Positions 1,626-31,582 are shown, numbered from the stretch's first letter. The stretch is DNA of 64,000 nt from Methanobacteriota archaeon (GCA_947084985.1 CAMTUI010000026.1:508-64507); one strand, 5' to 3'. Notes: a model not told the origin generated them from the letters alone. Made by a program: numbers and translations.

Positions 1626-2378
1626 ATGGAGGCCGAGGCCGGCGTCATCGCGCGGAAGGGGGAGGAGTTCCTCCTCAGCGAGCTCTACGTCTCCGTCCAG
1701 GGGGAGAGCTCCCTCGTCGGCCTTCCGACGATCTTCGTCCGCCTGTACACCTGCAACCTGCGATGCCGATGGTGCGACTCGATGCACGCCGTGGAGGGCG
1801 GGGATTTTACCCGAGTCTCCGTGAACGAGGTCGTTCAGCGGATCCTCGAACTCGCGGGACCGACGGAGGCTCGTGACTCGGGGATCCGGAACGTCTGCTG
1901 GACGGGGGGGGAGCCGCTCCTCCAGGCGGAGTCCATCGCGCGGGCAATCCGTCGGCTCCCGGACACGTTCATCCACTCCATCGAGACGGACGGCGAGGTG
2001 GACCTTCGCGCCTTCGACGACCTCGTGGCGGTCGACCGACCTAGCGGCCGCGTGCGGTACGTGATGGACGTGAAGTGTCCGGGATCCGGCATGAAGGCCG
2101 CGAAGGCGTTCGCGAACATGGCCTTGCTGCGCGACCACGACGAAGTGAAGTTCGTCCTGATGGACCGCGCGGACTACGAGTTCGCGAAGGACGTCCTCTC
2201 GAACCATTCCACGAAGGCCAAGACGGTCCTCTTCTCCCCCGCGACGCCGGCTCACAAGGTCTCGACGGGCCTCGAACCGGGCCAGCTCGCGGAGTGGATT
2301 CTGCGGGACCGCCTCCCGGTGCGCCTCCAGCTCCAGGTGCACAAGATCCTCTGGCCCGGGCGGGAACGTGGCATCTAG
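1626..2378 (+). CDS. queE: 7-carboxy-7-deazaguanine synthase QueE (radical SAM)
   Basis: Contains 'FVRLYTCNLRCRWCDS' (CxxxCxxC) and lies immediately downstream of queC. Confidence 0.85.
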   Translation: MEAEAGVIARKGEEFLLSELYVSVQGESSLVGLPTIFVRLYTCNLRCRWCDSMHAVEGGDFTRVSVNEVVQRILELAGPTEARDSGIRNVCWTGGEPLLQAESIARAIRRLPDTFIHSIETDGEVDLRAFDDLVAVDRPSGRVRYVMDVKCPGSGMKAAKAFANMALLRDHDEVKFVLMDRADYEFAKDVLSNHSTKAKTVLFSPATPAHKVSTGLEPGQLAEWILRDRLPVRLQLQVHKILWPGRERGI

Positions 2379-2435
2379 CCTTCGGGCGATCGCCGTCCAA
2401 AGAAGTTTCATCTACTCCCCGCCCTTGGCGTACGC

Positions 2436-2840
2436 GTGCGGTACGAGGAGATCGACCACACGGCGGACGTCGGCATTCGGGCGTTCGGGACGAACCTGAC
2501 GGAGCTGTTCGTGAACGCCGCGGAGGGCATGTTCAGCCTGATCGCGAACCTGGACGCAGTCCGGCCGGTCGGGGAAGTCGAGATCCGGCTCCGTGCGGAC
2601 GACATCCCGACCCTCCTGCTGCGATGGCTGTCGGAGCTCCTCTACCTCCATGAGACACAGCACTTTCTGTTCTCCTCCTTCGATGCGAGCGTGAGTGACA
2701 CGACCCTCCGCGCGCTCGCCCGGGGCGAGACAATCGACAAGACGCGTCACGAACTCAAGCTCGCGATCAAGGCCGTCACTCGACACCGGCTCGCGGTCGA
2801 CGAGCAGAAGGGCGTGGCCGAGGTGATCTTCGACATCTGA
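2436..2840 (+). CDS. Archease
   Basis: The N-terminal 'MRYEEIDHTADVGIRAFG' and C-terminal 'KAVTRHRLAV' patterns are typical of archease, and the length (134 aa) fits. Confidence 0.9.
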   Translation: MRYEEIDHTADVGIRAFGTNLTELFVNAAEGMFSLIANLDAVRPVGEVEIRLRADDIPTLLLRWLSELLYLHETQHFLFSSFDASVSDTTLRALARGETIDKTRHELKLAIKAVTRHRLAVDEQKGVAEVIFDI

Positions 2841-2848
2841 GGGGTCCG

Positions 2849-3583
2849 ATGGTCCGAGGCATCACGTTCGACTGGTGGCACACGATCGCCGAGACGCCGT
2901 GGCCCGACTACGACGACCGGATGAGGCACATCCGCGTGGAGCGAATCGGGGAGGCCCTCGCTGCCGCGGGCTCACCGGTCGGACGCGCGGCGCTCTACCG
3001 GGCGTACGACGCCCACACGGACCTGCTTGTCCGGTCCTGGAAGGACCTCGTCGATCTGACCGCCGAGGAGCAGATCCGAGCCTTCCTGGAGTTCGCCGGC
3101 CTGGGCGACCGGATCGAGGGTCTCGGACCGCGGATCGAGGAGGCGTTCGGCGCCGCGATCGAGTCCCGCATGCCGCGGCTCTACCCGGGAATCGAGGAGA
3201 CGCTGGCCCGCCTGCGCGACCTTGGATACCGGATCGGCCTGATCTCGAACACGGGTCGCACATGGGGCCGCTTCCTGCGACGCGTCCAGGACCGCCTCGG
3301 AATCGGCTCGTACTTCGATGTCCGTGTCTTCTCGGACGAGGTGCGGGTGCGGAAGCCCGACCCGAGGATTTTCCGCACGGCCATCGAGGCATTGCGCCTT
3401 GAACCGTCGGAAACGGTTCACATCGGCGACGACGCCACGGCGGACGTGGCGGGCGCGAAGCAGGTCGGGCTGCGCGCGGTCTGGTTCAACACGGGATTCT
3501 GGCCCGGCGCACGGGCGGACCGCGCGGACGCGGAGATCGGCGAACATCCGCGGCTCCTGAAGGTCCTGGAGGCGTGGGGATGA
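2849..3583 (+). CDS. HAD-superfamily hydrolase
   Basis: HAD motifs are present: 'ITFDWWHT' (motif I-like), 'LISNT', 'KPDPRIF' and 'HIGDDATADVAGA'. Confidence 0.8.
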   Translation: MVRGITFDWWHTIAETPWPDYDDRMRHIRVERIGEALAAAGSPVGRAALYRAYDAHTDLLVRSWKDLVDLTAEEQIRAFLEFAGLGDRIEGLGPRIEEAFGAAIESRMPRLYPGIEETLARLRDLGYRIGLISNTGRTWGRFLRRVQDRLGIGSYFDVRVFSDEVRVRKPDPRIFRTAIEALRLEPSETVHIGDDATADVAGAKQVGLRAVWFNTGFWPGARADRADAEIGEHPRLLKVLEAWG

Positions 3584-4539
3584 AGGCCACCGCAATCGCC
3601 CATCCGATCCAGGGGCTGATCAAGTACCACGGGCTCGCCGATCCGGTCCTGCGCCTCCCTTTCCACGACTCGATCAGTGTGTGCACGGCTCCGCTCACGA
3701 CCCGCACGACGGTCGAGTTCGGCTCGGTGCCTCGCGACACGGCGGAGATCGACGGTCGCACGGTGACGGCGAGGGACATGGAGCGGATCCGCGCGGTGGT
3801 CGACGTGATCCGGACGAAGGCTGGGATACGGGATCCGTTCCGGATGGCCTCCGTGAACGACTTCCCGTCGAACATCGGCCTCGGGGCGAGCGCCTCCGGA
3901 TTCGCCGCCCTCGCGATGGCCGCCAGCCATGCGGCAGGATTGCGGGTGAGCCTCGAGGAAGTCTCGAAGTTCGCACGCCGTGGCGCGGGTTCGGCGACGC
4001 GCTCCGTCACGGGCGGATTCAGCAAGTGGAAGATGGGCCTGACGGACGACGACTCGTACGCGGTCCAGCTTGCCGGCGAAGATCTCCAGATGGGGATCGT
4101 GGTCGCCCTCGTGCCCGCGTTCAAGCAGACGGAGGACGCGCACCGTGAGGCCCTCACGTCCCCGTTCTTCCACGCCCGCCTCGCGGAGATCCCGCGGCTC
4201 ATCGCGGAGATGGAGCTCGCGATTCGGAAGAAAGACATCGGGGCGATCTGCGCCTTCGCGGAGCGGGACACCCTGATGCTCCACGGCATCACGATGACCG
4301 GGACCGCCGAGATGGTCCTGTGGCAACCGGATACGCTGCGGGTCATCCTCGCGGTCCGCAAGTTGCGCGAAGCCGGCGTGCCCGCATTCTTCTCAATCGA
4401 CACGGGCGCCACCGTGTACGTCAACACATTCGCCGACCGCGCGGACGAGGTCCGGCGCGCCATCGGGGAGCTCACCATCCAGACGATCCCATGCCGCGTT
4501 GGCGGCCCCGCCCGCCTGAGCGAGGACCACCTCTTCTGA
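3574..4539 (+). CDS. Diphosphomevalonate decarboxylase-family enzyme (archaeal mevalonate-pathway decarboxylase/kinase type, GHMP fold)
   Basis: Contains 'HPIQGLIKYHG', 'GLGASASGFAALAMAA' (GHMP motif) and 'GAGSATRSVTGGFSKW'. The exact substrate cannot be decided from sequence. Confidence 0.8.
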   Translation: MGMKATAIAHPIQGLIKYHGLADPVLRLPFHDSISVCTAPLTTRTTVEFGSVPRDTAEIDGRTVTARDMERIRAVVDVIRTKAGIRDPFRMASVNDFPSNIGLGASASGFAALAMAASHAAGLRVSLEEVSKFARRGAGSATRSVTGGFSKWKMGLTDDDSYAVQLAGEDLQMGIVVALVPAFKQTEDAHREALTSPFFHARLAEIPRLIAEMELAIRKKDIGAICAFAERDTLMLHGITMTGTAEMVLWQPDTLRVILAVRKLREAGVPAFFSIDTGATVYVNTFADRADEVRRAIGELTIQTIPCRVGGPARLSEDHLF

Positions 4540-20936: not shown

Positions 20937-21623
20937 TTGAGAGACGCATCGGAAGAGGGGGCGCCCCGCGAGGGCTTGGGCGTCGTGCCGACGGGCTATG
21001 CAATCTTCGGACCGAAGACGGTCCCGCGGGTCGACCACGAGCGAATTTTCGTGCTAGACGGTCAGGCGAATCTGCTCGGGGAGTATGCCCTGCGGGACGA
21101 GTGCCCGCTCGAGTACGCCGACCTCAAACGGTCCATCCCGGCAAGCGGGATGCGGCACCTCGTGTCCTTCTACCAGGGGGAATACGCCTTCACGCCCTTC
21201 CGCGTGGATGACATCTGGTTCGTCGTCCTGACGCGGGGCGTGCCGCGGATCGAGGACCGCGGCTCGATCGGGACCCTCCTCGCGGCGATGCGGCTCCATC
21301 TCCCCACCGTCCTCGCTCCCGCACTCGCGGAGCGGGAGGCGGTCCTCCGCCGACTGGAGCGCGATCTCGACGAACGAGAAGCATCGCTCATCATGCGGGA
21401 GCAACGTGTCGCACTACGGGAGTCGGAACTCCACTTCACGAACGCGACGCTCCGGGAGTTGGAGGTCGACGTGCTGGCGCGGGAGAACAAACTGAACGCG
21501 CTCCGCGACTATGCGGTCCGGATGCAGATCGCGTTCCGGAATGGGGAACCCAAACCACCGATGCAAGACCCGAAGAAGCGCAGCCCACACGAGTCCGACG
21601 TATCCGCCGGCCCGTCCCCGTGA
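20937..21623 (+). CDS. Coiled-coil protein, paralogue A of the triad (228 aa): conserved alpha/beta domain + short coiled coil
   Basis: The listed ORF overlaps the ACT gene, so I chose TTG 20937, which is preceded by GGGAGG 7 nt upstream. The domain 'RIFVLDGQANLLGEYALRDECPLEYADL...IWFVVLTRG' aligns with the two downstream genes. Confidence 0.65.
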   Translation: MRDASEEGAPREGLGVVPTGYAIFGPKTVPRVDHERIFVLDGQANLLGEYALRDECPLEYADLKRSIPASGMRHLVSFYQGEYAFTPFRVDDIWFVVLTRGVPRIEDRGSIGTLLAAMRLHLPTVLAPALAEREAVLRRLERDLDEREASLIMREQRVALRESELHFTNATLRELEVDVLARENKLNALRDYAVRMQIAFRNGEPKPPMQDPKKRSPHESDVSAGPSP

Positions 21624-21628
21624 CGGTC

Positions 21629-21634
21629 TTTTTT
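21629..21634 (+). terminator. T6 run immediately after the stop of paralogue A
   Basis: TGACGGTCTTTTTTCAG is read directly. Oligo-T tracts are the usual archaeal termination signal. Confidence 0.4.
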
Positions 21635-21660
21635 CAGACTCGATAACGGGGTCCCGCCCC

Positions 21661-21668
21661 TTAAATAA
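21661..21668 (+). promoter_or_regulatory. TATA-like box (TTAAATAA) upstream of paralogue B
   Basis: This is the only AT-rich element in the 114-nt intergenic region, 70 nt before ATG 21738. Confidence 0.4.
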
Positions 21669-21737
21669 GCTGCCGCCCGCTCGATTCACGATCGAGGGAC
21701 CGCGAGGCATCGCCTTCGCGGCCGAGGCGGACAGCGC

Positions 21738-23141
21738 ATGCAAGGGCTGATCGAGTCCCTCCTGTCGGGCATCGTGATGCGAGGCCTCAGCCCGACGCTC
21801 GTCTCCGTCCTGATGTCCGCGCCCCTGAAGAAAGTCACGCGAGCGCAACTCAAGAAGATCTACGTGCTCGACGATCGAGGCGAAATGGCGGGCGAGTACA
21901 TCCTCGACGCCGACTGCCCAATCGACTACAACGATTTTCTGAAGGTACTCCCCAACGAAGGGATCGGCGATCGCGATTCCCTCTTCGTCGGGGAGTACGT
22001 GTTCACGGCATTCCAGAGCGGCAGGTTCGTGTTCGTCCTCCTGTCCCGGGGCCAGCTGGCCACGGAGGACTTCGACTGGACGGCACTCCTCCTGACCGCA
22101 GCGGACTCTCATCTCGCCCGTGGCGCGGCCCGTCCGGTTCCCGCGCGTCCTTCGGAGGCGACGCCCGAGTCCGACAAGGCCCTGGCCGAACGCGAGTCGC
22201 GGATCGAATCCCGGGAGAAGGCCCTCGCGGAACTCGAGGTGAAGCTGAAGGCCGAGCAGGCGAACCTCGCCGGTCGCGGCGAAGAACTCGACCGACAGAA
22301 GCAGCGGCTCGCGGCCCTGGCAGACTACTCCGCGAGGATGCAAGACACGGTCACGAAAGGCGTGAATCGAGCGCTCAAAACACTCGAACTCGCGGAGCAG
22401 ATCTCTGCGACCTCGCGCACGGAATCGACGAAGACCGACGCGAAGGCCGCACTGGAACTCCGACAACGGTTCGAGCGAGAGCGGCAGGAACTCCTCGCCG
22501 CGAAGGCGGGCCTCGATGGGAAGTACCGCGATGCCGTCTCCCGGATTTCCAGGCTTGAGCAGGAGGCGAAGGACGCCGTCGCCAAGCTCGAGAACGAACG
22601 GGCGGCGGCGTCCGTGCGCGTCGCCGAGGAAGAGAAGACCCGAAGGGAGATCGAGACTCGTGTCGCCGAGCTGAGCCAGAGGTTCGCGGCCATGGCGAAG
22701 GAGAGGCTCGTCGCATCCCACCGGACGACGGAGCCGTCCGAGGCCGTCAAGCGGGCCGAGGAAGGCGAGAAAGCGGAGCTCGCGCGGGAGCGGAAGTTCC
22801 TCCAGCGTCGAGCGATCGAACTCCTCGATCGCGAGGAGCGGGTCCGGGATCACGAGGCGAGGGCGGAGCAACGGGAGCGGGACGTCGCACGGCGGGAGGA
22901 CGAGGTCGTGGCTCGCGAGGCGGACCTCGAACGGCAGAAGGTGCTTCTCGCCCAGGCGAAACTCCAGCCCGCGGAGGTCCGGGCGGAGAGCAACGAGGCC
23001 CGGAAAGACATCGAACGGCGGGTGAAGATCATCCAGCAGAAGGCCCTCGAACTGCTCGACCGTGAAGAGAAGCTGCGGAAGCGCGCGGCGGAACTCGAGG
23101 CGATGGAAGCCCGTCTTGCGGGACGGGTACCGGCCGGATGA
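21738..23141 (+). CDS. Coiled-coil protein, paralogue B of the triad (467 aa)
   Basis: The domain 'KIYVLDDRGEMAGEYILDADCPIDYNDF...FVFVLLSRG' is followed by about 310 aa of E/R/A/K/L-rich heptad-like sequence. The C-terminal 117 aa are homologous to the C-terminus of the giant gene. Confidence 0.75.
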   Translation: MQGLIESLLSGIVMRGLSPTLVSVLMSAPLKKVTRAQLKKIYVLDDRGEMAGEYILDADCPIDYNDFLKVLPNEGIGDRDSLFVGEYVFTAFQSGRFVFVLLSRGQLATEDFDWTALLLTAADSHLARGAARPVPARPSEATPESDKALAERESRIESREKALAELEVKLKAEQANLAGRGEELDRQKQRLAALADYSARMQDTVTKGVNRALKTLELAEQISATSRTESTKTDAKAALELRQRFERERQELLAAKAGLDGKYRDAVSRISRLEQEAKDAVAKLENERAAASVRVAEEEKTRREIETRVAELSQRFAAMAKERLVASHRTTEPSEAVKRAEEGEKAELARERKFLQRRAIELLDREERVRDHEARAEQRERDVARREDEVVAREADLERQKVLLAQAKLQPAEVRAESNEARKDIERRVKIIQQKALELLDREEKLRKRAAELEAMEARLAGRVPAG

Positions 23142-23186: not shown

Positions 23187-23194
23187 TTATATAG
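23187..23194 (+). promoter_or_regulatory. TATA-like box (TTATATAG) upstream of the giant gene
   Basis: This AT-rich element lies 70 nt before ATG 23264. GGAGGA lies 9 nt before the ATG. Confidence 0.4.
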
Positions 23195-23263
23195 GTCGCT
23201 CAGGCCTCGATTCTTGCTTTCCGGAAGGGGGAGTCCAGCCCTCTCGACCGGAGGATATCCGAC

Positions 23264-26200
23264 ATGCGTCCAGCCCTCGCGGTCACGCTAGTTCTTGCCC
23301 TCATCGCCAGCGTGCTCGCGGCCCCGCTCATCGTCGCGCATCCGGCGTCCGCGGATCCGTGGCCGACGAACAACGGAGACGGCACGTCGGTGGTCCTTTG
23401 GAACTTCACGAATCCGTCCGACTACGCGCTCACGGACGCGGAAGTCATCGGCGGGAGCGCTGCCCTCAAACGGCAGCTCGGGTGGTGGAACAGCACGAGT
23501 GCGGCAGACTTCACGGGACCCGACAGCGCCACGAACGCGAACTGGACACGTTGGCCCGGGGACGTCGTCATGGATTCCGTGGCCGGGCCGTCGACCCTCG
23601 TCACGATCCAGCCCGATGGGGCGACGGGCCTCGATGCCTATCTGGATCGCGGCAACGCGGACACGAACCGTGGTGCCGACGCGAGCATGGTCTTCGAGCC
23701 CCGCGGGTCAACCACTCGGCGGCCGATCCTTCAGTTCAGCCTTTCGGCTATCCCTGCAGGCGCGCTCATCGACGACGCAAAGCTCAGCCTTTACATGAGC
23801 GGCGCAGCGGCGAATTCTCCGGTGGCGGAAGTCCATTCGGTGACCGCGGCCTGGAACGAGGGTCAGGTTACCTGGAACAACCGCCTGACTGCGACGCCGT
23901 GGGGGAGTGCCGGGGGCGACTTCGTTGCCCATGTCGTCGATCAGTTGAGCCTCAACGCATCGCTAGGATGGAAGACGTGGAACGTCACGCAGCTCGTCGA
24001 CCTGTGGTATCGTGGGCGCCTCTCGAGCAACGGCCTTATCCTCACGGGCCCCACGACTGGACCGAACTTCGACAAGACGTTCTGGTCCTCTGATTATGCG
24101 GTAGACCCCAGCCTCCGTCCGAAGCTCGAGGTACGGTACCGAGTCATCGGGGCCGCCGGTGAGTACGTTTCCCGCGTCGGGGGGCCCGGTTCCCTCGTCG
24201 CCTGGGACTCCATTTCCTGGAACATGACGGAACGATCCTTCGCGACGGATGAGTTCGCCGGATCGTCCCTGGATCCAAAATGGACGTGGACAAACCCGCC
24301 CACCTCGTACGACGTCGGCACGACGACACCGGGGAGCCTCCATGCGGTATCGACGACAGGCGGGGACCTCGACGGAGCCACGTTCTCGGGCAACGTGCTC
24401 GCGAACGAAGTGGCGGGCGACTTCACCGCAATCGCGATGATCAGCGGCGACCCGACCGTAAGCGGGCAAAAACACGGACTCATGGTCCTGCTCAACAGTC
24501 GCAACTGGTACGCAATCCAGAAGGTAAACGCTTCGGGGAGCGTCAACTGGCAGGCGAAGTCCACCGCCGATGCCGCCACCGTAATCCGCGCGAACGTCGC
24601 GAGCGGGAACCCCGTTCCGGCGTGGTACCGGATCGGGCGATCCGGGAACACCTTCACGGCGTCAACGAGCTCCGATGGTGTTTCTTGGACCACACGGGAC
24701 ACGTACACGCCCGCGTTCGAGTATCCCCTCGAGGTCCGGATTGCCGTTTTCCTGACCGACGGACTCTCCGGGACCGCCCACACGGTCGATGCTGACTACG
24801 TCCGCGTGAACATCAGCAACGACGCCACGGTCGCCGTGAGCACGAGGACGGGGAACACGAGCACGGTGGACGCCTCCTGGTCCGCGTGGTCCGCACCGTA
24901 TCCTGCTCCGTCCGGTTCCCCCATGTCGGGGCGCACGAACTATGCACAGTTCCGCCTGACCTTGTCCGTCGCGTATCCGGATCACACGCCAAACATCGGC
25001 GACGTGAACATCTCCTGGACGACGTACCCGGCCTCGGGGACCGTCGAGACCGCGGATTTCGCGCCGGGCGACTTGGCGGAGTGGGACACGTTCGACGCCG
25101 TCCACACACTCAATGGACAGACGGTTGCGTACGCCTACTCGACGGATTCCGGCGGAAACTGGACCCCGTTGACACCGCCGCAATTCCTCCTGGGGGTGAG
25201 TACCGCCAGCGGAACAATCCGCTTCCGCGCGACACTCTCAACGGCGAGCGCGACCCTCACGCCGGTTGTCCGCGAGATGCGCCTCACGTATCGGCACATG
25301 CTGGACCACTTCTACGTGACGGCGTCATCGACCGCGACAGCGGGCGCCTCCTTCTCCATGACGGTGACTGCCAAGGACGCGGGCAACGCAACGATGACCT
25401 GGTGGACGGGCACCGTCACCCTTGACGCGGTACTGCCGGACGGCGTCACCCCCGCAAGTGGGGTCCTCGGCGTGACGAGCCTCGCGATTTCCGCAGGTGG
25501 CACGGCCACCTTGACCACGGAAACGTACACGAAGGCCGAGGTCATCCGGATCCGCGCAAGCCTCGGAACCGTGTCGGGTCTGAGCGGCCCGATCGATGTC
25601 TCTCCGGGCTCACTGAATCGAATCGCCGTGACGCCGAACGACGTCACTCTCCTTCCGTTCGACGGCCAGATTCTCACGGCCACCGGCTACGACGCCTGGA
25701 ACAATGTGATCTCAGTCCTCCCCTTCGGTTGGTCCGTCACCGGGGGCGTCGGGAGTTTGAACCTCTCTACCGGACCGAGCGTGAATTTCACTGCGAGTCC
25801 CCCGCCCGCGAACGGGATCGTCGAGGCGTCCGTTGGCGCAATCGTGGGGATTGCGCAAATCCATGTTGTCTCGGGCATCCGGCCGTGGGTCACGATCTCA
25901 GCGCCGGCGAGCGGAGACCATCTGACCGGCGCCGCGTCAGTTGATTACACGAACAGTTCCGATGCGGTGTCGATCCGCTTCGAGTACGACGACGGATCCG
26001 GATGGACGCTCATCGGGATGACGGTGACACTCAATGGGACGTTCCTCTGGGACACGACGGGACTCGACTTCGCGGGCGGGAGCCTTCGGGCGATCGTCAC
26101 GAACAATCGGGCGACCACGAACACGACGACAGTGACTCCGATCGAGGTCGACAATACCCCGCCCACCATCACGGTTGGCTCGGCTGTCGATTCGCAGTCG

Positions 26201-29200
26201 ACGAGCGGGACAATCACGCTCACATACGCAACATCACCCGATGTCGTCCAGGTTAACTTCGCATACTTCGACGGGGCATGGAACTCCATCGGTTCCGACG
26301 TCACCGTTGACGGCTCCTACGTGTGGACGCCCGGCATCCCGATCAACGGAGTGACGGTCCGCGCAACCGCCGTGGACGAGGTGGGCCTATGGGGAACCGG
26401 CGAGAGACTAGGGATTGGCAACCGCACCGTGGGCACAAACCCGCCATCAATCCAAGGGATCCCGGCCCTCCACGTTCGCGTGGGCACGGCGTACGGCCTG
26501 AACCTCAGCTTCTACGTCTCCGATCCCGACACGGGTCTCGCGTCCCTCTCGATCACGGTCGCGGATCCTGCGAACGTCACGGTCCTCGGTGGCCCCTACC
26601 CGAGCCTGACGATCACCTACGGGACATCGGGCACCTTCGTGCTCACTGTGTGGGTGTCCGACGGTATCGACACCGCCTGGGCCTTCCTCACAATCATCGC
26701 CTCCGGCGTGAGCCCGCCTGTCGTCCTCCTAAATCCTCCGGCGGTGGCCTTCGATGAGGATACGACCTCGGTCAACGGATTCGGCGTACCGGCCGGAACG
26801 TTCATCGATGATCCCGACGGGGACCCCCTCACGTTCGAGGTCCTCGGAAACCGGACGGTACACGTCCGAGTGAACGCGGGAGGGACAATCGACTTTTGGG
26901 CCGATCCGAACTGGTACGGCTCCGAAGCGATGCGACTCCGCGCAACGGATCCCACCGGCGGATTCGCGGAGACCTCCTTCATCGTCCTCGTGCGGTCCGT
27001 CAACGACGCGCCCATCCTCGCTCTGATCCCGGACCTCTCAATCGACGCAGCTGTGACATACATCCTTAACCTCGGTCCGTTCCTTTCCGACGTCGACACC
27101 CCGCTTTCCTCCGTGACCGTGACGACGGACAGCCCATACGTCACGGTGAACGGACACATCCTCACCCTGGCGTTCCCGTCCGATTGGACGAACGCCGATA
27201 TCCAAATCACCGTCTCCGATGGCTCGGCGGTCGCGCTCCAGACCGTGCGGGTGGCGTTCCGCGTCACCCCGACCTGGTGGAGCTCCCCCTACGTGCTCGC
27301 AATCCCGCCTATCGGTGTATTCGTGGTGGTAGCCATGTTTGCGCAACGCGCGCGCTGGAGGCCGACGAAGGCCTTCCTTGTGGACGAACGCGGTCGAATG
27401 ATCAGGGAATTCACCCTGGATCCCTCCTGTCAGGTCACGTACGACGAGGCCGTGCAGGCGGGCGCCTTGGAGGCCGTCGAGAAGCCGATCAAGGTGGCCA
27501 AGTACCACGCCCAGACGGTCCGTGGGGACGCCCTCGCGGTCGTCCTCCTGGCCGTCGGCCCCGTGACCGTGGAGCAGGTCGAGTTCGCGCGGGAGATGCT
27601 CGTCCAGATTCAGGACAAGTTCGAGGACACGGTGAAGTCCCGCCTCGAGGAAGCGCGGGCGTACGAGGCGGAACTCGAGGGGCAGGCGAATTCGATCGGG
27701 GAGCAGCAGGCGGCCATGGAGGGACGAGCCACGGAAATCGAATCCATGATCCAGCAGGTCGAGGTCGCGCAGTCGAAGGTCTCGACGGAGACGGCGGCTC
27801 TCGCCACGCGAGAGCAATCTCTCGAGGCCCGCGAGCGGCAGGTCGCCGAAGACCGACGGGTCGTGGACGACTTGGCACGCCAGCTCGAAGAGCTTCGCGT
27901 ATCCCTCGAAAATAGAGGCGCGAAGATCCAGGAGCAGGCCGGAGAGGTCGTTCGGAGGACGGAGGCCATCGTCGCGAGGGAGAATGCGATCGCCCCGCAC
28001 GAGGAGGCCCTCGCGAAGCGGGAGGAAGGGATCGCCGCGGCGGAAGCGGCTCTGAAGGCCCAGGCGGAACTCATGGACAGGAAGGCATCCGACTTGGCGG
28101 CCCAGGAGCACGTCCTGGCCGAGCGCGGGGCCGTTGTGACAGACGAAGAGGAGGAACTCCGTGCCGCACAACAGGCGTTCGAAGATGACCAGAAGGAAGT
28201 GCTGGATTTCCGAGCGTCGATTGACTCCCGCGTTGCGGCCGTGGAAAAAGCGGAGTCGGATATCGCATCGAATCGCAAGGAACTCGAGGACCGCGAATCG
28301 CGCATCACGCCGAAAGAAAAGGAACTTCAAGAACGGGAGTCCGCCCTACTGGACAGGGAAACGGCCATCCAGGCGGAGATCGCCAAGCGCACGAAACATC
28401 TCGAAGACCGAGAGGCCCAGCTTTCCCAGGAGGCGGAGCAGCTCCAGACAAAGAGCCAGGAGATCGAACAGAGTCTCCGATCCATCGAGACCCAGTCGAA
28501 CGAGCTGTCCGCCGAGCGAACGAGCATCGACGAAGGTCGCGCGGCTCTGGAGCGCGAACGAGCCTCCTTGGAGAGACGCATTCAGACACTGGATGCCGAG
28601 CTGCGAACGCGAAAGGAGGACCTCGACGCTCAGGCACGAGCGGTGGCGGACGGACAGCTTCAGCTCTCTCAGGACAAGCAGACGTTTGACGGGCTGAGGG
28701 GCGAGAAATCCCATTGGATCGCATCGAAGGAGATTGAGCTCGAGTCGCTGGAACAGGCCCTCTCCGAAAAGGAGGCGGCCGTCCGCTCGCAGGCCGAGCA
28801 GAACGCGCAGCAGCTCGCGGACCTGGCCGCCCGAGAGGAGACCCTCGAAATCGAGGCGGATCGGCTCGAGAAGGACCACGCCGAACTCGACGCGCGCAAG
28901 GGCGAGCTCGACAAGCTCGCGAAGAACCTCGACGCGAAGGCCGTGCAGCTTCGCGAGGAAGAGGCCCGCAAAGCGGAAGAGTACCGCACGTGGCAGGCAA
29001 CCCTAGAGTCGGAGCAGACCCTCCTGCGGCAGCAGCGGGAGACCTTCGAGAAGGAAATGTCCGACCTCCGCGACTCCTGGGCCGCCCGAATGCTCCGCAT
29101 CCAGGAGCGCGAGGAGAATGTTGCGGCGCGCGAGGAAAAGGCAGGCGAGGGCATTGAATGGGCCGCGAAGGCCGAGGAAGAAGTAACGCGCCGCGAGAAG

Positions 29201-31582
29201 GCGGTTCAGACCGCGTCCGCCGAGGCGGACCGAATGAACGCCGAGGTCGAGGCGAAACGGAAGGAGGTCGAGCAGCGAGCCTTCGAGGTGGAAGCTCGTG
29301 AACGGTCCCTGCGCGAGGAGGCGGCCACGCATGCGGATGAACTCACACGACGCGACGCGGCCTTGCGGACCGCGGAGAGTCAGCTGGCCGAGAAGCGCGC
29401 GGAAATGGAACGGAATCTGACCGCCCGGTCCCTGAAGTTGCAAGAAGCCGAGACGGACATCACCCGTAAGGGGCAAGAGAACGATGCCAAGATCGCAGAG
29501 GTGACCGGCCGGGAAGTGCGGCTCGTTTCCCTCCAGGAGTCCCTGCGGCAAGAACAGGAACGCCTCGTCCGGGAGCGAAAGGACCTCCAGATCGCAGCCG
29601 AGCAGCTGGACGCGAAGCAGGTCGAGCTGGCCCAACAGAGGCAGCGTCACGCCGAAGAGGCCGTGCGCTTCCAGGCGGAAGCGGAGTCGATCCGCCATTC
29701 CCTCGCCGCGAAGGAAGCGGACCTGCAATCGGAGCGGGAACGGCTCGAGAGGGAGTCTACATCCCTGCAGGACCGTCTCGGAGCGAAAGCGCAGGAGTTC
29801 GTGTCCCGGGAACGATCAATCTCCGCGCGCGAGGACGAACTCCGTGCGGAAGAGCAAGATCTCGAAGGCCGCATCCGAGCCATCGAATCGCGAGAACGAC
29901 AGGTCGATGCGCAGGCGGGAGAAGTCGCCGCCCAGACCGCCGCTCTGTCGAAACGACAGGCCGAGGTCGACGCGCGAGCCGCCCAACTCGAGACGATGGC
30001 GCGGAAGTTGCTCGTCGACCAGGAGGAAAAGCAGAAAGAATGGGAATCCGTGCGGACCGCCCTCAAGTCGCAGGAAGCGAAAATCAGCGCGACGGCGGAA
30101 TCGCGGATGGCACAGATCACCGAGCAGGTCACGGAACTCGAAGCTCAAGAACGGTCCCTTGCCGTGACGGCAGCCCAGCTCGAGGCGGAAACGGCGCGGC
30201 TCGCAGATGCTGCGAAGGCCCAGTCGGCGAAGGACGCGGAGGCGTCCGCGGCGATGTCGCGGGCTGAGAAGCGGTTCCAGGAGATCCAGGCCCGTGAGGC
30301 GGAAGTCCTCCAGATGCGTCAGGCGTTCGAGTCGGAGCGATCCTCTTGGGCCAGCCGGCGGGCGGAGGAACTCAAGCAGCTCGAGGCGACCCGCGATGCG
30401 GCTGCGGAGCAGACACAGAAGGCGGAGCGGCTCACCCAGGACGCGCAGCGGCGCGCTCTCCTGGCGAGCGAAGCGGAACGGGCCGCGAGGCGCCAGGCGG
30501 ATGACCTTGCGGCCTTGCATGCCGATCTGGAGACGCGCCGCGCCGATCTCGATAAGCTCGAGCGGACGCTGAAGGCTCAGAACTCCCAATACCAGGAGAC
30601 CTCGCGCGGGCTCGCCGTGAAGGAAACGGAGCTCACCGCGCGCGGGAAGGATCTCCAGGCAGAGCAGGCGCGTCTCGTCGCAGCGGAGCAGGACCTCACA
30701 TCGAAGACGGAGGGCCTGAAGGCTCGCCAAGCGAATCTGGAGCGGGAGGCGGCCCGCGTCGCGGAACTCAACGCGAACACCGAAGCGCGCAAGGCTGACG
30801 CCCAGGCGCGCGTGAGCGCCGCGGAAGCGAAGATGGCCGAGGTCGCCCAGCGTGAGCGTGTCCTCACCACGGAGCTTCAGCGGGCGGAAAACCTGATGGA
30901 AGATCTCGGGCGCAAGCAAGATGAGATTCGCGCAAAGGAGAAGACGCTCGCATCCGTCGAGGCGGACTTCGGAATGCGTAAGTCCGCGGTGGCCCAAAAG
31001 GAGGCCGAGCTGAAGGAGGGCCTGAAAGTCCTCGAGTCGATGCGACGGGACCTAGAGGCCCGGCTCGGGGCCATCGACCAGGACCGCTCGGCGGCTGCGA
31101 CGGCTCGCGAAGAGGCCGTGGCCCTGAAGGCCGAGGCGGACCGGGCGAAGGCACAGGTCGAGACGATGGGGAAGGAGGTCGCCAAGAACATGAGGTTCCT
31201 CCAGAAGAAGGCCGTCGACGTCCTCGACCGCGAGGAGAAGGTCCGCGATCTCGAGCAGAACGCGCAGGAACGGGAAAAGACGCTGGAGGCCCGCGCGGAA
31301 ATCCTCGAGGCAAAGGAGAAGGCGATCGAGGAGGAGCGCACCCAGATGGTCGCCAAGATGGAACGGCTCCAGTCCGAGATCGACCGGTTCAAGGGGAAGC
31401 TCTCCGATGCTGAAAAGGCCGCGAAGCCGACCGCCGAGATGGAAGACTGGAAGAAGGACATCGACAACCGCGTGAAGATCATCCAGCGGAAGGCGATGGA
31501 CCTCCTGGACCGCGAGGAGAAGCTCCGGAAGAGGGAGGAAGAGCTCCAGGCGCTCGCACAGCAGCTCGGCGTGAAGCCCTAA
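23264..31582 (+). CDS. Giant single-pass membrane protein (2772 aa): secreted multi-domain ectodomain, one TM helix, cytoplasmic alpha/beta domain and very long coiled coil (paralogue C)
   Basis: This is an uninterrupted 8.3-kb ORF with a signal peptide 'MRPALAVTLVLALIASVLAAPLIVAHPASA'. It carries a DNRLRE-like module ('ADTNRGADASM...ILQFSLSAIPAGALIDDAKLSLY...VTAAWNEGQVTWNN'), a ConA/LamG-like module ('DEFAGSSLDPKWTW...') and Ig-like and cadherin-like ('SVNDAPIL') repeats. The TM segment is 'SPYVLAIPPIGVFVVVAMFA', followed by 'QRARWR'. Confidence 0.85.
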   Translation: MRPALAVTLVLALIASVLAAPLIVAHPASADPWPTNNGDGTSVVLWNFTNPSDYALTDAEVIGGSAALKRQLGWWNSTSAADFTGPDSATNANWTRWPGDVVMDSVAGPSTLVTIQPDGATGLDAYLDRGNADTNRGADASMVFEPRGSTTRRPILQFSLSAIPAGALIDDAKLSLYMSGAAANSPVAEVHSVTAAWNEGQVTWNNRLTATPWGSAGGDFVAHVVDQLSLNASLGWKTWNVTQLVDLWYRGRLSSNGLILTGPTTGPNFDKTFWSSDYAVDPSLRPKLEVRYRVIGAAGEYVSRVGGPGSLVAWDSISWNMTERSFATDEFAGSSLDPKWTWTNPPTSYDVGTTTPGSLHAVSTTGGDLDGATFSGNVLANEVAGDFTAIAMISGDPTVSGQKHGLMVLLNSRNWYAIQKVNASGSVNWQAKSTADAATVIRANVASGNPVPAWYRIGRSGNTFTASTSSDGVSWTTRDTYTPAFEYPLEVRIAVFLTDGLSGTAHTVDADYVRVNISNDATVAVSTRTGNTSTVDASWSAWSAPYPAPSGSPMSGRTNYAQFRLTLSVAYPDHTPNIGDVNISWTTYPASGTVETADFAPGDLAEWDTFDAVHTLNGQTVAYAYSTDSGGNWTPLTPPQFLLGVSTASGTIRFRATLSTASATLTPVVREMRLTYRHMLDHFYVTASSTATAGASFSMTVTAKDAGNATMTWWTGTVTLDAVLPDGVTPASGVLGVTSLAISAGGTATLTTETYTKAEVIRIRASLGTVSGLSGPIDVSPGSLNRIAVTPNDVTLLPFDGQILTATGYDAWNNVISVLPFGWSVTGGVGSLNLSTGPSVNFTASPPPANGIVEASVGAIVGIAQIHVVSGIRPWVTISAPASGDHLTGAASVDYTNSSDAVSIRFEYDDGSGWTLIGMTVTLNGTFLWDTTGLDFAGGSLRAIVTNNRATTNTTTVTPIEVDNTPPTITVGSAVDSQSTSGTITLTYATSPDVVQVNFAYFDGAWNSIGSDVTVDGSYVWTPGIPINGVTVRATAVDEVGLWGTGERLGIGNRTVGTNPPSIQGIPALHVRVGTAYGLNLSFYVSDPDTGLASLSITVADPANVTVLGGPYPSLTITYGTSGTFVLTVWVSDGIDTAWAFLTIIASGVSPPVVLLNPPAVAFDEDTTSVNGFGVPAGTFIDDPDGDPLTFEVLGNRTVHVRVNAGGTIDFWADPNWYGSEAMRLRATDPTGGFAETSFIVLVRSVNDAPILALIPDLSIDAAVTYILNLGPFLSDVDTPLSSVTVTTDSPYVTVNGHILTLAFPSDWTNADIQITVSDGSAVALQTVRVAFRVTPTWWSSPYVLAIPPIGVFVVVAMFAQRARWRPTKAFLVDERGRMIREFTLDPSCQVTYDEAVQAGALEAVEKPIKVAKYHAQTVRGDALAVVLLAVGPVTVEQVEFAREMLVQIQDKFEDTVKSRLEEARAYEAELEGQANSIGEQQAAMEGRATEIESMIQQVEVAQSKVSTETAALATREQSLEARERQVAEDRRVVDDLARQLEELRVSLENRGAKIQEQAGEVVRRTEAIVARENAIAPHEEALAKREEGIAAAEAALKAQAELMDRKASDLAAQEHVLAERGAVVTDEEEELRAAQQAFEDDQKEVLDFRASIDSRVAAVEKAESDIASNRKELEDRESRITPKEKELQERESALLDRETAIQAEIAKRTKHLEDREAQLSQEAEQLQTKSQEIEQSLRSIETQSNELSAERTSIDEGRAALERERASLERRIQTLDAELRTRKEDLDAQARAVADGQLQLSQDKQTFDGLRGEKSHWIASKEIELESLEQALSEKEAAVRSQAEQNAQQLADLAAREETLEIEADRLEKDHAELDARKGELDKLAKNLDAKAVQLREEEARKAEEYRTWQATLESEQTLLRQQRETFEKEMSDLRDSWAARMLRIQEREENVAAREEKAGEGIEWAAKAEEEVTRREKAVQTASAEADRMNAEVEAKRKEVEQRAFEVEARERSLREEAATHADELTRRDAALRTAESQLAEKRAEMERNLTARSLKLQEAETDITRKGQENDAKIAEVTGREVRLVSLQESLRQEQERLVRERKDLQIAAEQLDAKQVELAQQRQRHAEEAVRFQAEAESIRHSLAAKEADLQSERERLERESTSLQDRLGAKAQEFVSRERSISAREDELRAEEQDLEGRIRAIESRERQVDAQAGEVAAQTAALSKRQAEVDARAAQLETMARKLLVDQEEKQKEWESVRTALKSQEAKISATAESRMAQITEQVTELEAQERSLAVTAAQLEAETARLADAAKAQSAKDAEASAAMSRAEKRFQEIQAREAEVLQMRQAFESERSSWASRRAEELKQLEATRDAAAEQTQKAERLTQDAQRRALLASEAERAARRQADDLAALHADLETRRADLDKLERTLKAQNSQYQETSRGLAVKETELTARGKDLQAEQARLVAAEQDLTSKTEGLKARQANLEREAARVAELNANTEARKADAQARVSAAEAKMAEVAQRERVLTTELQRAENLMEDLGRKQDEIRAKEKTLASVEADFGMRKSAVAQKEAELKEGLKVLESMRRDLEARLGAIDQDRSAAATAREEAVALKAEADRAKAQVETMGKEVAKNMRFLQKKAVDVLDREEKVRDLEQNAQEREKTLEARAEILEAKEKAIEEERTQMVAKMERLQSEIDRFKGKLSDAEKAAKPTAEMEDWKKDIDNRVKIIQRKAMDLLDREEKLRKREEELQALAQQLGVKP
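27284..27343 (+). other. Predicted transmembrane helix of the giant protein (aa 1341-1360)
   Basis: This is the only long hydrophobic stretch after the signal peptide. The positive cluster RARWRPTK on its C-terminal side suggests the C-terminus is cytoplasmic. Confidence 0.7.
27629..31579 (+). repeat. Region encoding about 1317 aa of low-complexity E/A/R/K/Q/L coiled coil
   Basis: Heptad-like, almost Pro/Gly-free sequence with recurring 'xRExxL' units (for example 'DRESRITPKEKELQERESALLDRETAIQ'). I saw no exact nucleotide tandem repeats. The region generates long spurious antisense ORFs. Confidence 0.75.

Follow-up and report, generated by a model that had tools for sequence, protein, structure and literature searches.

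A single open reading frame (ORF) in a 64,000-nucleotide stretch of archaeal DNA (Methanobacteriota archaeon, GCA_947084985.1, CAMTUI010000026.1:508-64507; hereafter the window) encodes a giant protein in which an adhesin-like ectodomain is coupled through one transmembrane (TM) helix to a huge coiled coil that is predicted to lie inside the cell. This ORF (23264..31582, + strand) is uninterrupted over 2772 amino acids (aa) and contains the whole of the ectodomain-coding stretch 23264-27283, which is our main subject. Its product consists of a signal peptide, an ectodomain of ~1310 aa, the TM helix, an alpha/beta domain of ~90 aa and a heptad rod of ~1320 aa. The source assembly is a metagenome-assembled genome (MAG) of an uncultured soil archaeon, of 1.75 Mb with a completeness of 87%. 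On the sequence evidence, the coupling of ectodomain and coiled coil that an initial annotation of this DNA had pointed out is real, as it is conserved in more than 40 orthologues. The same annotation had called it unusual for a prokaryotic surface protein, and in the full-text literature we found no described counterpart of such a protein. Related species carry an unrelated ectodomain at the same locus, joined to the same membrane helix and rod, and the ectodomain behaves as an exchangeable cassette. Our preferred reading, held with moderate confidence, is an adhesin or glycan binder that would be tied to an internal scaffold.

All sequence-level indicators place residues 31-1340 outside the cell. 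This assignment is based on a signal peptide with a conserved mature N-terminus, conserved sequons confined to this part, domains of extracellular type, residues that obey the positive-inside rule, and a heptad rod that starts after the TM helix. The Kyte-Doolittle hydropathy profile of the giant protein has just two peaks, at aa 1-30 and aa 1341-1362. In the 41 aligned orthologues the hydrophobic region of the first peak is variable and conservation begins right after a small residue, at an invariant Asp31-Pro32 that is followed by '(D/N)N.DGTS', as is expected for the cleaved signal peptide that had been suspected here. The residues 3' of the second peak, 'QRARWRPTK', fit the positive-inside rule. 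The many N-x-S/T sequons noticed earlier exceed what composition predicts: the ectodomain contains 21, against 13.6 +/- 3.2 in composition-preserving shuffles (p ~0.02), and 12 of them are kept in at least 31 of the 41 orthologues, while the 1400-aa cytoplasmic part contains a single one. The conserved sequons include N47, N76, N240, N320, N582, N708, N833, N953, N1080 and N1104. The ectodomain is devoid of cysteine in this protein and in most orthologues.

Profile hidden Markov model (HMM) searches and structure prediction supported the modules that the initial annotation had assigned to the ectodomain, and its module coordinates agreed with the domain matches to within ~30-120 bases. For the structural part, two AlphaFold2 models were built on the 41-sequence alignment, one of aa 30-790 (pLDDT 83.8) and one of aa 781-1480 (pLDDT 85.9). 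The DNRLRE-type module, placed beforehand at about 23600..24050, was matched by the NCBIfam profile DNRLRE_dom (NF033679) at aa 124-290 (nt 23633-24133; E 3.6e-27, 95.4 bits versus a cut-off of 34), and over the same residues by the Pfam profiles CBM96 (PF24517; 48.5-55.4 bits versus a cut-off of 26) and Disaggr_repeat, the latter also above its cut-off. Its beta-sandwich fold was recovered with Foldseek among predicted viral structures, where it aligned to a phage CBM96 protein (A0A0K2CP88; 194 columns, root-mean-square deviation (rmsd) 3.4) and where the head also matched several LamG/ConA tail proteins. The ConA/LamG-like module, expected at about 24250..24815, begins with 'DEFAGSSLDPKWTW' at aa 329 (nt 24248). 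It was matched by GH43_C2 (aa 328-477; 31.5 bits versus 22.7) and by DUF1349 (aa 373-478; 32.4 versus 32.4), and Foldseek searches of the PDB aligned it to the DUF1349 structures 3o12 and 3mep (TM-score 0.84-0.86, rmsd 2.2-2.6) as well as to GH43 C-terminal domains. A chondroitin-sulfate-binding carbohydrate-binding module (8wab) aligned to the head model at a TM-score of 0.80 in the same database, to one of the two jelly-roll domains. The next beta-sandwich, of 160 aa and here called module X (aa 521-680), was absent from the initial annotation and recurs in many other ORFs of 1000-2000 aa in the class. Pfam searches with the isolated pieces aa 520-700 and aa 690-900 gave no match, and a PDB sequence search with the entire ectodomain gave no hit. 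From the N-terminus, the head thus consists of an N-terminal beta region, the CBM96/DNRLRE domain, the ConA-like domain and module X. Within the N-terminal region, aa ~67-122 (23462-23629) weakly resemble aa 229-299, which lie towards the C-terminus of the DNRLRE domain; in a search of small size the two aligned at 30% identity across 71 aa with E 2e-5, and the N-terminal segment may be a degenerate partial repeat.

The head is followed by a stalk in which AlphaFold2 predicts seven beta-sandwich domains between aa 682 and 1335, one at aa 682-780 and six at aa 781-1335. This agrees with the several Ig-like repeats proposed earlier, and the stalk model matched titin Ig arrays, DSCAM and classical cadherin ectodomains in the PDB (Foldseek, E down to 8e-19). 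Pfam detects one of the seven, a Big_9 domain at aa 1160-1237, which scored 25 bits with the whole protein and 37.8 bits with the fragment (cut-off 23.6); the Cadherin_5 profile stayed under its cut-off (18.3 versus 26.5 bits). The initial annotation had described repeats bearing 'VNDAP' and 'DPDGDPLTF' as calcium-site-like motifs. The motifs are present, but they are not repeated in this protein: 'VNDAP' is found only at aa 1246 and 'DPDGDP' only at aa 1183, within the one Big_9 domain. Duplication is recognizable at the level of domains, as the third and fourth stalk domains form a tandem duplication and the fifth and seventh are recognizable duplicates. Orthologues carry two or four extra Big_9-type units of 98 aa, which brings their total to three or five copies.

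In a word-indexed search, ~45 full-length orthologues with lengths of 2285-3058 aa were found. All belong to Thermoplasmata MAGs of soil or sediment, and the closest bear the names 'Thermoplasmata archaeon' or 'Methanobacteriota archaeon'. The MAGs that contain related loci were obtained from grassland soil, sediment and the like. Identity among the orthologues is 53-68% in the ectodomain, 77% in the alpha/beta domain and 45% in the rod. Insertions or deletions of 40 residues or more are absent from the head (aa 31-780) in 39 of 40 aligned orthologues; the exception is missing the final ~30 head residues through a larger deletion in the stalk. The stalk varies by whole modules (units of 98 and ~89 aa), with 178-356 residues added after aa 794 or ~280 residues lost, besides the extra Big_9-type units. 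A constant head on a stalk that varies by modules is how stalk-and-head adhesins are built.

When 1.84 billion cluster representatives were scanned exhaustively with HMMER, using the 750-aa head as query, 7140 proteins matched at E 1e-3 or better, of which the best 150 were listed. The fixed four-module head is rare, as only ~25 of these best 150 align to all of it in one stretch; most of the other listed matches cover the DNRLRE part alone (query residues ~76-268). The whole-head matches are either of the giant type or belong to a type of ~1620-1720 aa at 29-34% identity. The latter, from the f10 family of the same class, combine this head with cadherin-like repeats and a TM helix but end in a different tail of ~135 aa and lack the rod, so that the head sits on at least two different cytoplasmic parts. 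Their tail is highly conserved ('PFVIRDMMLIHNDGFLI...GMLTAVLNFVEDSM...FGF..Y.V.V.RG...AVVYEGD'); it had no Pfam match, and a PDB profile search with it gave designed proteins only. We do not claim homology of this tail with the alpha/beta domain (hhalign probability 0.1%). Genes of the f10 type were seen at L009:4024-9219 (- strand), L010 and L048-L057, and some genomes have two tandem copies. Two genomes of a sister family contain a shorter second paralogue of 1909 aa (G114:C2:33477-38663 and G184:C86:9858-15041) with the same head (55% identity), an alpha/beta domain (48-53%) and a much shorter rod.

The second main observation is that the ectodomain differs in kind between loci. Searching species-representative genomes with the alpha/beta domain yielded 35 loci, with a readable ORF in 31. 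A DNRLRE-type ectodomain is present in 16 of these ORFs. The remaining 15 have an ectodomain without any BLAST similarity to it (type II), attached to alpha/beta domains that are 70-85% identical to that of the window. Type II ectodomains measure 1460 to ~3300 aa where complete, consist of Ser and Thr for 27-32% and, bar one short truncated fragment, contain 2.1-2.9 sequons per 100 aa. They form one mutually related family, for which Pfam gave no match at or above cut-off. Gene order at the type II loci agrees with that of the window on either side, with the coiled-coil paralogue B and an ACT-domain gene upstream, and the genes found at 32.1-36.3 kb of the window downstream. DNA homology between the two kinds of locus runs through gene B and stops at ~23197-23199, just 3' of a TATA-like box; it restarts at 27265-27275 with 78-81% identity. 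At the protein level homology restarts at 'WW.SPY.LA.PPIG', directly before the TM helix. The replaced segment (~23200-27265) nearly coincides with the stretch 23264-27283. Of 20 further genomes of the genus that were searched, 19 have exactly one copy of the TM-alpha/beta-rod part; in four genus members without a DNRLRE-type head, the ORFs that carry this part measure 2603-4484 aa.

For 28 loci, a maximum-likelihood tree was built from 720 residues of the cytoplasmic part. It requires four switches of ectodomain type, at least three of which are forced by well-supported branches, and the approximately unbiased (AU) test rejects a single clade for type II (delta lnL, the log-likelihood difference, 186; p 2.8e-44). 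Old paralogy with differential loss was rejected as an explanation, because there is one copy per genome, at the same locus, and the cytoplasmic parts are intermixed by type. Judged from the sequences, repeated replacement by homologous recombination via the conserved flanks is the simplest account. The G+C content at 23-27 kb (0.64-0.66) equals that of the flanks; a recent foreign origin of the cassette is therefore not supported, and its donors were probably close relatives. At one type II locus (L019:1480-5621), ~4.1 kb separate the end of the upstream homology from the start of the frame that holds the TM helix and rod, a distance that may point to a split or disrupted ectodomain gene.

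Conservation in the giant protein peaks in the cytoplasmic alpha/beta domain, where mean identity is 77% and Cys1389 is invariant. When its alignment profile was compared with PDB sequences, only chance matches were obtained (calmodulin, vinculin; E 0.01 or weaker). The rod shows heptad periodicity at z = 28 relative to shuffles and has 4 prolines in ~1320 aa; at the textbook coiled-coil rise of ~0.15 nm per residue, its length would be ~190 nm. The giant protein and upstream paralogue B have the C-terminal module (aa 2691-2772) in common. The last ~35 codons (31450-31552) match the 3' end of gene B at loci L014, L016, L019 and L020 with 78-82% DNA identity, and this fits the shared conserved C-terminal module. 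An identity as an SMC or archaea-specific SMC-related protein was rejected: the scores (63.7 bits versus 567, and 40.1 versus 729) came from matches in coiled-coil parts only and are noise. Likewise rejected was PF27881 as a new domain on the orthologues, since this profile is CRWN_N and the match is a weak coiled-coil match.

The giant gene appears to possess start signals of its own, a TATA-like TTATATA (23188-23194) and a Shine-Dalgarno (SD)-like GGAGG (23251-23255) 9 nt 5' of the ATG. Paralogues A and B keep their synteny at loci of both ectodomain types, and the same order was seen in a related soil contig. The coordinates of all features are collected in Table 1. The genome has a further open frame with DNRLRE matches, which lies beyond the window on contig C30 at ~2102-4156 and encodes 1546 aa. 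Its matches to the two halves of the DNRLRE model are ~1.5 kb apart, so that a large insertion may interrupt the domain, or the matches may represent two partial domains. Another alpha/beta domain, at 73% identity, was found at L035 on a 1734-base contig (DATEYD010000285.1) binned as 'Candidatus Paceibacterota bacterium', which is probably a mis-binned Thermoplasmata contig.

Table 1. Predicted features of the giant protein and its locus, with examples of the alternative ectodomain. Coordinates are those of the window unless a locus is named.
Feature	Residues (aa)	Coordinates	Strand	Basis or remark
Upstream paralogues A (~20937-21623) and B (21738-23141)		20937..23141	+	Alpha/beta domain and coiled coil, without ectodomain
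Promoter-like region		23188..23255	+	TATA-like TTATATA and GGAGG; DNA homology to other-ectodomain loci ends at ~23199
Signal peptide	1-30	23264..23353	+	Hydropathy; basic n-region, ~22 hydrophobic residues, 'PASA' before the predicted cleavage site and 'DP' after it
N-terminal beta region	31-123	23354..23632	+	No family match
DNRLRE / CBM96 domain	124-321 (HMM match 124-290)	23633..24226	+	Eponymous motif here 'WNNRLTATPW'
ConA-like beta-sandwich (DUF1349 / GH43_C2 type)	328-520	24245..24823	+	Pfam, AlphaFold2, Foldseek
Beta-sandwich module X	521-680 (low-confidence loop 529-558)	24824..25303	+	AlphaFold2
Five Ig-like beta-sandwiches	682-780, 781-870, 876-962, 969-1051, 1069-1147	25307..26704	+	AlphaFold2, Foldseek
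Big_9 / cadherin-like domain	1161-1250	26744..27013	+	Contains 'FDEDT', 'DDPDGDPLTF' and 'VNDAP'
Membrane-proximal Ig-like domain	1258-1335	27035..27268	+	Paralogue of aa 1069-1147
'WWSSPY' juxtamembrane motif and single TM helix	1337-1362	27272..27349	+	Homology to other-ectodomain loci restarts here (27265-27275)
Alpha/beta domain	1367-1452	27362..27619	+	Predicted b-b-a-b-b-b-a; beyond the stretch 23264-27283
Heptad rod and conserved C-terminal module	1453-2690 and 2691-2772	27620..31582	+	Beyond the stretch 23264-27283
Type II ectodomain examples		L014:800-10000, L016:2876-10000, L032:3146-10000		Syntenic with window 23200-27265

How such a protein might work can be sketched from its domain families. 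The head would bind a polysaccharide or glycoconjugate. The characterised CBM96 member TM6-N4 binds alginate, with Lys27 and Arg36 as basic ligand-binding residues, and other proteins with DNRLRE domains include hyaluronate and pectate lyases (PMC9971899). With seven domains of ~4 nm each, the stalk would hold the head roughly 30 nm out, and the TM helix ties the ectodomain covalently to the alpha/beta domain and the rod. The rod, in turn, would form a parallel dimer beneath the membrane, where with paralogues A and B it would constitute a scaffold or be bound to one, and the outer layer would thereby be anchored to this internal scaffold. Relatives of this class are without an S-layer, and a rumen member of the Methanomassiliicoccales shows a bare membrane only (PMC5011839). 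On this reading, related species have repeatedly swapped the ectodomain, with recombination at two fixed junctions, one directly behind the promoter and the other directly in front of the TM helix. More tentatively, and with less than even confidence, the whole can be viewed as a one-polypeptide link between an adhesion receptor and a cortical skeleton, where a fixed chassis made up of TM helix, alpha/beta domain and ~190-nm rod would form a sub-membrane scaffold with its two paralogues, and extracellular cassettes, either the lectin-type head on its Ig stalk or the S/T-rich fibre, would be exchanged between species at the two junctions. Several points weigh against the adhesin-scaffold reading and the exchange. 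The groups compared in the AU test were named after the tree had been seen, and columns in the coiled coil are difficult to align, although the size of the effect is very large and the synteny and single-copy evidence are independent of the tree. Moreover, the alpha/beta domain has no relative in Pfam or among PDB sequences, and only composition and periodicity underlie the prediction of the coiled coil and of its dimer state.

The sequence ranks adhesin, coat component and receptor in this order without deciding among them. As a coat component, which we regard as possible but clearly less probable, the glycosylated ectodomain would be a bulk component of an unordered exterior layer that replaces the S-layer and is held by the internal rod; the lectin-type modules would then bind self glycans or neighbouring coat proteins, and swapping would reflect viruses that use the coat as a receptor. 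Cultured wall-less Thermoplasmatales without an S-layer do have a ~20-nm unordered exterior protein layer, whose proteins have not been identified (PMC12448462), and the proteins in which DNRLRE domains were originally recognised are archaeal ones of the S-layer and disaggregatase types (PMC9971899). The presence of one copy per genome in nearly every genus member, the gene's own TATA-like box and SD-like sequence, and the dense and conserved sequons would also suit a coat, and the interchangeability of two ectodomain types at one locus argues that no single ligand is indispensable. However, families f2, f3 and f4 of the same order do not have the gene, so that it is no universal envelope component, and the conservation of head order across families, at 29-34% identity, suggests a specific binding task.

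It is improbable that the protein is a transmembrane receptor, in which ligand binding by the head would be passed on via the TM helix to an alpha/beta domain, possibly Roadblock- or longin-like, that regulates a small GTPase or another partner, and the rod would serve as a platform. What speaks for it is the alpha/beta domain, both for its conservation and its invariant cysteine and for its predicted order of strands and helices, which resembles that of longin or Roadblock domains; the f10 proteins, moreover, have no rod but do retain head, TM helix and a small domain in the cytoplasm. Yet the alpha/beta domain gave no sequence match to Roadblock, longin or any Pfam or PDB family, the neighbouring genes listed in three loci include no GTPase family hit, the f10 tail is not demonstrably homologous to the alpha/beta domain, and a 1300-residue rod is unnecessary for signalling. 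We consider it very unlikely that the protein is a membrane-anchored polysaccharide-degrading enzyme of the disaggregatase or glycoside-hydrolase kind. The Disaggr_repeat and GH43_C2 profiles that would suggest this represent non-catalytic accessory modules, and Pfam and NCBIfam revealed no catalytic domain in the 1310 aa; as for the weaker Foldseek matches to GH16 glucanases, these structures align at a TM-score of only ~0.5, and no GH16-type catalytic ExDxxE motif was seen on reading aa 328-520. An artefact, be it a fusion by mis-assembly, a sequencing error or an unreal gene, is suggested by the unusual size alone and can practically be dismissed: ~45 orthologues, from assemblies and sources independent of one another, share this architecture without interruption, and the genomes searched in six frames contained no internal stops. 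We retain an adhesin or glycan binder tied to an internal scaffold as the preferred, though not firmly established, reading.

Comparison with known systems shows which aspects of this protein are new. With the DNRLRE/CBM96 proteins, among them archaeal disaggregatase-related and S-layer-type surface proteins and the alginate-binding TM6-N4 (PMC9971899), the giant protein shares the profiles, matched well above cut-off, the beta-sandwich and the setting in an archaeal surface protein, whereas here the domain is present as a single copy in a fixed four-module head, without a catalytic partner, in a polypeptide that continues into a cytoplasmic rod. The giant bacterial adhesins SiiE, LapA, MpIBP and those of the Bap type have the same string of Ig-/cadherin-like domains in variable number with lectin-type modules at the distal end. 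Those adhesins are type I-secreted or sortase-anchored and have no cytoplasmic part, while the present protein is predicted to be an N-glycosylated type I membrane protein with half of its mass inside the cell. With eukaryotic cadherins and integrins the likeness is one of logic only, namely a single-pass protein with a tandem beta-sandwich ectodomain that links the outside to filaments. Cadherins and integrins make this link via short tails and adaptor proteins, whereas here the rod is part of the same polypeptide, and there is no sequence relationship (Cadherin_5 remained below cut-off). SlaB of the Sulfolobales and tetrabrachion of Staphylothermus are likewise envelope glycoproteins with a TM helix on the C-terminal side and a long coiled coil. 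In these two proteins the coiled coil is extracellular and the cytoplasmic tail minimal; the present arrangement is the reverse, with the beta-domains outside and the coiled coil inside. Closer to home, the type II proteins (L014, L016) share the locus, TM helix, alpha/beta domain, rod and flanking genes but differ in an ectodomain that is unrelated in sequence and two to three times longer, and the f10 proteins (L009) follow the same head-and-stalk logic (29-34%) but end in a different cytoplasmic domain of 135 aa, without a rod. The outer modules and the mix of domains are thus ordinary, but the fusion to a cytoplasmic rod and the bounded, repeatedly exchanged cassette are not.

These findings bear on how archaea without a cell wall or S-layer may organise their surface. 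Half of the mass of this surface protein resides in a conserved rod that is predicted to be intracellular, which makes it a candidate tie between the outer layer and an internal support in such cells. The clean exchange of the cassette resembles the switching of surface antigens or capsule loci, but takes place inside a single gene. If the tentative adhesion-to-skeleton view is true, these archaea would have a switchable cell surface over a constant internal skeleton, and if the scaffold reading holds, the envelope mechanics of wall-less archaea would become testable via a named gene.

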